Position numbers and translations under genes: made by a program. This document shows positions 58,230 to 58,515 of a stretch of 64,000 nucleotides of DNA, piece after piece. The notes below the pieces were generated by a model. It did not search any database and was not told where the DNA came from. It worked only from the letters and a program-made list of their open reading frames with translations. Each line of letters opens with the position of its first letter. Position 1 is the stretch's first letter. Source of the stretch: Escherichia coli (lineage in GTDB: Bacteria > Pseudomonadota > Gammaproteobacteria > Enterobacterales > Enterobacteriaceae); the NCBI RefSeq assembly GCF_048403405.1, contig NZ_CP183129.1; one strand, 5' to 3'.

Positions 58230-58515
58230 CATTTCCTCCTATAGGCTGATTTCAGTCTGGCACCGAATCAGCGGAAAGTGAAGAAATTAACAATATGATT
58301 TATTAGAGCTTTATTTAAAATTTTGCAGATAAATATATATAAATAAAAATTTGTTTTCGCCACATGCTTATTCAAAAAATGAAATAAGAATACATTGCTA
58401 AGTTATTCGCGCCTTTTTATAATTCGTTACCTTTCCAGGGACGCTAATCTTTGATCCTTAAGAAAGTTTCCGGGACCGCGAAGGTCTCTTTTTTTGTTGT
58501 ACGGACTCTTGATAA

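Follow-up and report, generated by a model that had tools for sequence, protein, structure and literature searches.

The ampC attenuator of Escherichia coli reportedly has a short leader that encodes no classical leader peptide and carries an intrinsic terminator just before the start codon, and read-through of this terminator is said to set ampC expression and to follow growth rate. The leader of ydiY resembles it as a short, terminator-bearing leader before an envelope-related gene, and the expression module that contains ydiY tracks translation and ppGpp. However, the two leaders have no sequence relationship, and growth-rate dependence would apply to ydiY by analogy only. The ampC hairpin also terminates the upstream frd operon, whereas nothing upstream of ydiY needs terminating. 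The 5' UTR of ompA, the mRNA of an outer-membrane protein, carries a stabilising stem-loop at its 5' end or within a few nucleotides of it. The first hairpin of the ydiY leader (P1) is comparable, as it starts at +1 and belongs to the mRNA of an outer-membrane protein, but the ompA UTR is not known to have a terminator and has no homology to the ydiY leader, and a stabilising role of P1 is putative. The third relative is the pH-responsive leader (PRE) of alx, a pH-regulated envelope gene, which reportedly has no ligand-binding aptamer; pH-dependent pausing and refolding are said to expose its ribosome-binding site in the response to alkaline conditions. An envelope gene annotated as pH-regulated and a leader without a recognised aptamer are likewise found at ydiY. 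The alx leader is, however, much longer and responds to alkaline pH, whereas ydiY is annotated as acid-inducible. Finally, 5' UTRs with premature termination were described by Adams et al. 2021 (PMC7815308), and they combine a promoter, a short leader, a 3' end before the start codon and a small RNA, as is the case here. Compared with that set, the ydiY leader has its 3' end at a probable intrinsic terminator of canonical form, 20 nt from the ATG and conserved family-wide together with its promoter.

YdiY is a conserved and poorly understood outer-membrane protein without a described promoter architecture, and a conserved terminator 20 nt before its start codon offers a concrete control point for the gene. 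The leader also adds a defined, family-wide conserved case to the anonymous 3' ends that Term-seq has recorded in 5' UTRs, and the by-product, 62 nt in length, is a candidate for a new small RNA of enterobacteria. A full-text literature search with ydiY, with ydiY together with pfkB and sRNA, and with the leader sequence retrieved no description of the element. Its ends already stand in published tables, and none of the papers searched brings together the element, the promoter that drives it, how far it extends and how widely the family conserves it. The findings overturn nothing in current understanding.

The pfkB-ydiY region, its promoters and the probable terminator

The window analysed in this study is the whole stretch of 64,000 nt (64 kb) of E. 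coli DNA, in which 601 nt are 100% identical to strain 118UI. In this window pfkB lies on the minus strand (57300-58232 as the longest ORF, with the K-12 pfkB ATG at 58229), and ydiY, the gene downstream of the leader, lies on the plus strand (58516-59274) and encodes a DUF481 outer-membrane protein (PF04338) of 252 aa. The spacer between them measures 283 nt with the longest pfkB ORF and 286 nt with the K-12 pfkB start, slightly less than the 287 bp given in an earlier note on this DNA. The extreme AT-richness claimed in that note was confirmed: overall G+C of the spacer is 33% and drops to 18% over the 100 nt at 58281-58380, which is the minimum of the whole window and a level reached by 0.0125% of its 100-nt windows. 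An AT stretch that had been placed at about 58330-58355 is present and was located at 58329-58353. The note took the AT-richness to suggest curved or H-NS-bound DNA; an AT-rich tract as such DNA would require is present, but it is poorly conserved in sequence (0.46 identity). The AT-rich spacer between the divergent promoters, to which no strand is assigned, comprises 58266-58411 when defined by 100-nt windows of at most 22% G+C. Such windows occur at one other place in the 64 kb, at 51276-51388.

On the minus strand, pfkB is transcribed from 58247, which leaves 18 nt to the K-12 ATG at 58229, as recorded by Kim et al. 2012 (PMC3415461, supplementary file 2), who list the start at NC_000913.2 1804376 (+) with a 5' UTR of 18 nt. 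A conserved CTGGCAC motif (58256-58262; GTGCCAG on the minus strand) is found at about -9 to -15 of this start and would fit a weak extended -10 (TGcCAGACT). For ydiY, a sigma-70 promoter was identified on the plus strand at 58395-58423, with a -35 hexamer TTGCTA (58395-58400), a 17-bp spacer and a -10 hexamer TATAAT (58418-58423), the latter a perfect consensus. This is the only promoter-like site in 57200-59600; it matches the consensus at 10 of 12 positions, is aimed at the hairpin, and its hexamers show no variation across 16 genera. The transcription start site of ydiY, a C at 58431 on the plus strand, is located 8 nt past the -10 and gives a 5' UTR of 85 nt; it was taken from the same supplementary file 2 of Kim et al. 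2012 (PMC3415461), where it is listed at NC_000913.2 1804192 on the minus strand with a 5' UTR of 85 nt and an upstream sequence ending ...TATAATTCGTTACC, for a mid-log culture in M9 glucose. The divergent start sites of pfkB and ydiY are therefore 184 bp apart, with the AT-rich tract in between.

Directly upstream of the -35 hexamer lies a conserved block, GCTTATTCAAAAAATGAAATAAGAATACA (58366-58394, plus strand), which spans -65 to -37 relative to the ydiY start. Within this block, CTTATT (58367-58372) and AATAAG (58383-58388) form an inverted repeat centred near -53.5, and the block could be a candidate UP element and/or a transcription-factor site. An FNR half-site, a sigma-54 promoter (CTGGCAC), an RcsB box and a CsrA site were also weighed by inspection of the sequence, and none of them fitted well enough.

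The probable intrinsic terminator occupies 58472-58495 on the plus strand, between the start site and the ATG. As the earlier note had described, the hairpin GGGACC-GCGAA-GGTCTC is found at 58472-58488 and is followed by T7 at 58489-58495, the end of which is exactly 20 nt from the ydiY ATG at 58516. The stem has 6 bp, among them four G-C pairs and one G-U pair, the loop GCGAA has 5 nt, and the G+C-rich stem is directly abutted by the U7. Folding energy is -8.1 kcal/mol for the hairpin alone and -9.5 kcal/mol with the flanking CC/UU. Six terminator-like sites were found in 57200-59600 against 2.8 expected after shuffling; at only about twice expectation, the terminator pattern by itself is weak evidence, and we regard the hairpin as a real terminator because of its conservation and of a 3' end mapped in vivo. 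This 3' end was reported from Term-seq by Adams et al. 2021 in eLife (PMC7815308, supplementary files 1 and 3) at MG1655 1806107 (minus), unnamed, classed as 'orphan' and placed 24 nt upstream of ydiY. Since the window aligns with MG1655 without indels in this region, 1806107 corresponds to 58492, the fourth T of the T-run. The mean read number of 31,086 may be compared with 35,983 in the adjacent row, which lists an RNA end located 25 nt before trpE (PMC7815308).

In the same data the 1806107 end appears in the M63-glucose sheet only and not in those for LB at OD 0.4 or 2.0 (PMC7815308), and its absence from both curated LB lists means that it either depends on the condition or is close to the limit of detection. 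The bicyclomycin data in that study (PMC7815308) are confined to LB, a medium in which the 1806107 end is not called. Both ends of the leader RNA thus derive from glucose minimal medium, M9 for the start and M63 for the 3' end, and together 58431 and 58492 delimit a leader RNA of 62 nt, CUUUCCAGGGACGCUAAUCUUUGAUCCUUAAGAAAGUUUCCGGGACCGCGAAGGUCUCUUUU.

The earlier note had seen no plus-strand gene upstream of the hairpin that would need terminating. This is true of protein genes, but the hairpin has a plus-strand promoter and a mapped start site 41 nt upstream of it. It had also named a ydiY start downstream of the hairpin as the result that would speak against its proposal of an attenuator or a structured 5' UTR element; the published start at 58431 is upstream, and the proposal gains further support from the 3' end in the U-tract and from strong purifying selection. 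We consider it about 65% probable that the hairpin is a functional Rho-independent terminator within the 85-nt 5' UTR of ydiY, which would make this a premature-termination (attenuator-type) leader. Transcription starts at 58431 from the conserved, near-consensus sigma-70 promoter; the first 36 nt of the leader can fold into P1, followed by the UUUCC linker, the terminator hairpin and the U7, and the abundant 3' end at 58492 was seen in glucose minimal medium. Because the 20 nt that remain after the T-run are too short for a promoter, every ydiY mRNA would have to arise by read-through, and the terminator would set, and possibly modulate, ydiY output.

Conservation and lineage variants of the leader

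A set of 80 ydiY loci, with one genome per species, was used to analyse conservation. Promoter, leader, hairpin and T-run, followed by GTTGTACGGAC, were present in nearly all of them, including those of Escherichia, Citrobacter, Salmonella, Enterobacter, Lelliottia, Leclercia, Klebsiella, Phytobacter, Pluralibacter, Franconibacter and Siccibacter. With a covariance model of 57 distinct sequences, each locus returned a single copy, in every case immediately before ydiY; the model gave no second match elsewhere in the 64-kb window, and additionally detected the element in Mangrovibacter, Buttiauxella and Shimwellia. The upstream neighbour of ydiY in Shimwellia is not pfkB, which shows that the element travels with ydiY. 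The model search found no element in Erwinia, Pantoea, Serratia and Rahnella. Of 5,426 complete E. coli genomes, 5,420 carry a single copy of the element; no annotation lies under the leader in these 5,420, and no RNA feature is annotated there in MG1655 RefSeq.

Mean pairwise identity across 16 genera was 0.86 for the block from -65 to -37, 0.87 for the promoter from -35 to -10, 0.65 for P1, 0.81 for linker, terminator and U-tract, and 0.85 for the segment from the terminator to the ATG, which is as conserved as the first codon positions. The corresponding values were 0.53 for third codon positions of ydiY, 0.46 for the AT-rich spacer (58301-58362) and 0.53 for the pfkB-proximal part. The block upstream of the -35 is accordingly among the best-conserved parts of the intergenic region, and these figures indicate that the leader is under strong purifying selection. 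The segment between terminator and ATG, GUUGUACGGACUCUUGAUAA (58496-58515, plus strand), contains the nearly invariant GTTGTACGGAC in the alignments and, as its only Shine-Dalgarno-like motif, GGA at 58503-58505.

Within the terminator stem, compensatory or wobble changes were found at four of the six pairs across the family. The G-U pair is replaced by A-U in 16-17 sequences, the basal G-C pair by A-U in the Pseudescherichia clade, and the stem reads GGAACC/GGUUUC in Buttiauxella and GGGGCC/GGCUUC in Shimwellia. The probability of this stem in the folding ensemble is about 1.0 for most orthologues. These data bear on the possibility that the region is conserved as DNA, the leader sequence holding operators through which H-NS, Nac or another DNA-binding protein regulates the divergent pfkB and ydiY promoters, and the hairpin being incidental. 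The extreme AT-richness of the spacer, the conserved inverted repeat upstream of the -35 and the listing of ydiY as Nac-repressed in a secondary source would agree with operators. The stem changes G-U to A-U and G-C to A-U, however, keep pairing on the plus-strand RNA only, which makes purely DNA-level conservation unlikely, the U-tract contains a mapped 3' end, and the most AT-rich DNA is the least conserved part of the intergenic region, although its AT-richness persists between genera. We therefore regard this explanation as highly improbable.

Several lineages depart from the common arrangement. Five loci of the Klebsiella oxytoca group and K. indica keep the hairpin with a degenerate U-tract (CUUAUAGG or CUUUUAUG), so that the hairpin in these species probably does not terminate, and weakened U-tracts were also found in K. 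pneumoniae (UUUUAU) and Raoultella (UCUUUUU). Since the hairpin is kept where the U-tract is degraded, termination alone does not explain its conservation. In Raoultella and relatives (three loci, at about 2290-2420 of the locus), the apical loop of P1 is enlarged by an insertion of about 130 nt. This imperfect palindrome folds into a long nested hairpin, and the base of P1, the GGA/UCC pairs and the terminator are all intact around it. The insertion looks ERIC-like but had no significant match in E. coli genomes. In K. pneumoniae (L069, locus about 2423-2500), the leader and terminator are intact, and some 68 extra nucleotides follow them before the ydiY ATG. The part next to the ATG resembles the region upstream of two leaderless loci, L055 and L065, which suggests a recombinant arrangement; these two and L011 have a different upstream region without the element.

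The loci of Erwinia, Pantoea and Rahnella lack a terminator-ended leader. At 40-110 nt before ydiY they have in common motifs similar to GCATTGATCG and CCGTACRGGTCAC, which are reminiscent of CATTGATCC and GTTGTACGGAC in the leader of enterobacteria, and these motifs may represent an older core of the ydiY 5' UTR.

Predicted structures of the leader and the 62-nt RNA

The 5'-terminal hairpin P1 (58431-58466, plus strand) is present in the minimum free energy folds of most of the 57 orthologues. Its basal stem is formed by CUUUC (58431-58435) and GAAAG (58462-58466) and begins at +1 of the transcript, its inner stem by AGGGA (58437-58441) and UCCUU (58455-58459), and in the common fold of the orthologues the inner stem is GGA/UCC under a large loop. 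This large loop bears a conserved UUGAUCC (58451-58457). P1 is joined to the terminator by the single-stranded linker UUUCC (58467-58471, plus strand), which is nearly invariant in alignments A1 and A3. For the whole modelled structure of P1 and terminator, 90-97% of cells pair, compared with 33-67% when the partner is slid, and double changes were found at 3-4 pairs. Those within P1 are an inversion of a basal pair from C-G to G-C in one sequence and a change of an inner pair from G-C to A-U in another. When 5' and 3' halves of P1 from different species were combined, the energies were as good as the native ones (p = 0.72). The case for P1 thus rests mainly on conserved complementary blocks together with a few lineage-specific changes. 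Retention of the primary sequence in paired as well as unpaired parts suggests sequence-specific recognition of the leader by a protein or by another RNA.

Such conservation would also be expected if the main product of the locus were the 62-nt RNA itself, acting in trans as an Hfq- or ProQ-bound small RNA or sponge from a gene arranged head-to-tail before ydiY, with read-through into ydiY being secondary. The strong promoter of its own, the terminator with a U-tail and the discrete, abundant 3' end are what a small-RNA gene would have, and the predicted single-stranded UUGAUCC, UUUCC and 5' CUUUC are conserved in sequence, as is typical of seed and protein-binding sites. Leader fragments ligated to GcvB and SibE were recovered by Hfq-CLASH, but each hybrid is a single read and the predicted energies are weak (-4.6 and -13.5 kcal/mol), and the leader RNA is absent from RIL-seq-based predictions of small RNAs. 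The genomes are similarly divided: the element of K. pneumoniae has remained intact despite the extra nucleotides before ydiY, whereas the element was never found away from ydiY in the genomes searched, and the K. oxytoca group has lost the U-tail needed for Hfq binding and RNA release and has kept the rest. A primary role as a small RNA, which is compatible with attenuation, is therefore a tentative proposal that we consider unlikely on present evidence. The weak best bacterial match in Rfam, the Hfq-binding RNA isrD (RF01388), aligns CCACCGCGCAGGUGG and a U-run with CCGGGACCGCGAAGGUCUC and a U-run. Membership in this family was rejected, with a score of 17.1 bits against a gathering threshold of 37 and E = 1.7, as a generic terminator alone is aligned. 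A match to STM1328/SL1263 of Salmonella in Hfq-mutant proteomics appears to concern lpxR and not ydiY, and is hence irrelevant; a literature search for Salmonella STM1327 and SL1262 returned nothing.

The leader may also act at the level of the full-length mRNA. The 3' end at 58492 could be an exonuclease stop at the hairpin and not the point of termination, as Term-seq cannot separate the two, and the structures of the leader would be mainly post-transcriptional elements of the ydiY mRNA, with 58492 marking a hairpin-protected decay intermediate. P1 at the first nucleotide would protect the 5' end, as in ompA mRNA, while the second hairpin, together with the conserved GUUGUACGGAC, would modulate the access of ribosomes. 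The position of P1 at +1, the retention of the hairpin where the U-tract is degenerate in Klebsiella and Raoultella, and the match in conservation between the terminator-to-ATG stretch and first codon positions are consistent with this explanation. Further, GAAAGUUUC (58462-58470, the 3' arm of P1 and the linker) can pair over 9 bp with GAAGCUUUU (58518-58526, ydiY codons 1-4), and when the UTR is folded with 45 nt of coding sequence, a local hairpin often encloses GGA and AUG. The GAAAGUUUC-GAAGCUUUU pairing is picked by RNAalifold with RIBOSUM scoring and missed by plain RNAalifold, however, and these long-range pairings, like the local hairpin, come from energy models only, while ATGAAGCTTTT is retained also in loci without the leader. 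Published RIL-seq data from nitrogen-starved E. coli contain 54 and 44 chimeras of SdsR with the ydiY CDS in two replicates at 24 h, which mark the mRNA as a small-RNA target, so that ydiY is probably a target of SdsR. Against a mainly post-transcriptional role, a perfect U7 after a G+C-rich stem with a 3' end inside it is a textbook terminator, and the U-tract is conserved in most genera. We judge this explanation improbable, and more so than a primary small RNA. Under the preferred reading of a premature-termination leader, the same structures may still protect the 5' end of the read-through mRNA and shape its ribosome-binding region.

Possible control of read-through and features downstream of ydiY

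Attenuators are commonly controlled through leader peptides or riboswitches, and the ydiY leader fails the defining tests of both. The leader contains no ATG or GTG. A TTG frame of 22 codons (58451-58519) runs through the terminator to a TGA that overlaps the ydiY ATG as ATGA, and it is kept in 39 of 66 orthologues; since indels break it in the other 27, a leader peptide was rejected. No Shine-Dalgarno motif was seen before this frame on reading the sequence, and the frame is probably not coding. A search of Rfam 15 with E up to 10 gave chance matches only and no known aptamer. Folding of truncated transcripts from 66 orthologues detected no conserved antiterminator: when transcripts were cut before the 3' arm of the terminator, the 5' arm was unpaired in 22 of 66 orthologues and had only 2-6 nt paired in the others.

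As no intrinsic sensor was found, any control should be exerted by a trans-acting factor or by kinetics, or else the terminator is simply leaky. A trans-acting factor might be an RNA-binding protein or a small RNA, and polymerase kinetics might follow growth rate or pH. Calling of the 3' end in M63 glucose and not in LB is an indirect hint of condition dependence, as is the listing of ydiY as Nac-repressed. In MG1655 RefSeq, ydiY is annotated as acid-inducible, and the module in which it is expressed correlates with translation and ppGpp and is responsive to pH. A further-reaching proposal gives the 62-nt RNA a regulatory function of its own throughout the family in which it is conserved, either as a trans-acting small RNA or sponge made together with an outer-membrane protein, or as a factor-independent leader in which the efficiency of the terminator would follow growth rate or pH through polymerase kinetics; we regard this as unlikely. 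If true, such a kinetic leader would explain acid induction of ydiY without a known sensor.

Downstream of ydiY, 9 nt past its stop codon, an 11-pair hairpin GCCGGACCGTGTTATGCGGTCTGGC with only a weak T-run was observed at 59283-59307. It is located between ydiY and the convergent small gene yniD (minus strand, 59327-59434, mapped from MG1655). Further on, the minus strand of 59601-61500 contains two adjacent ORFs of low G+C (about 32-40%), of 150 and 493 aa and with an overlap of 35 nt, which correspond to the arpB pseudogene region of K-12.
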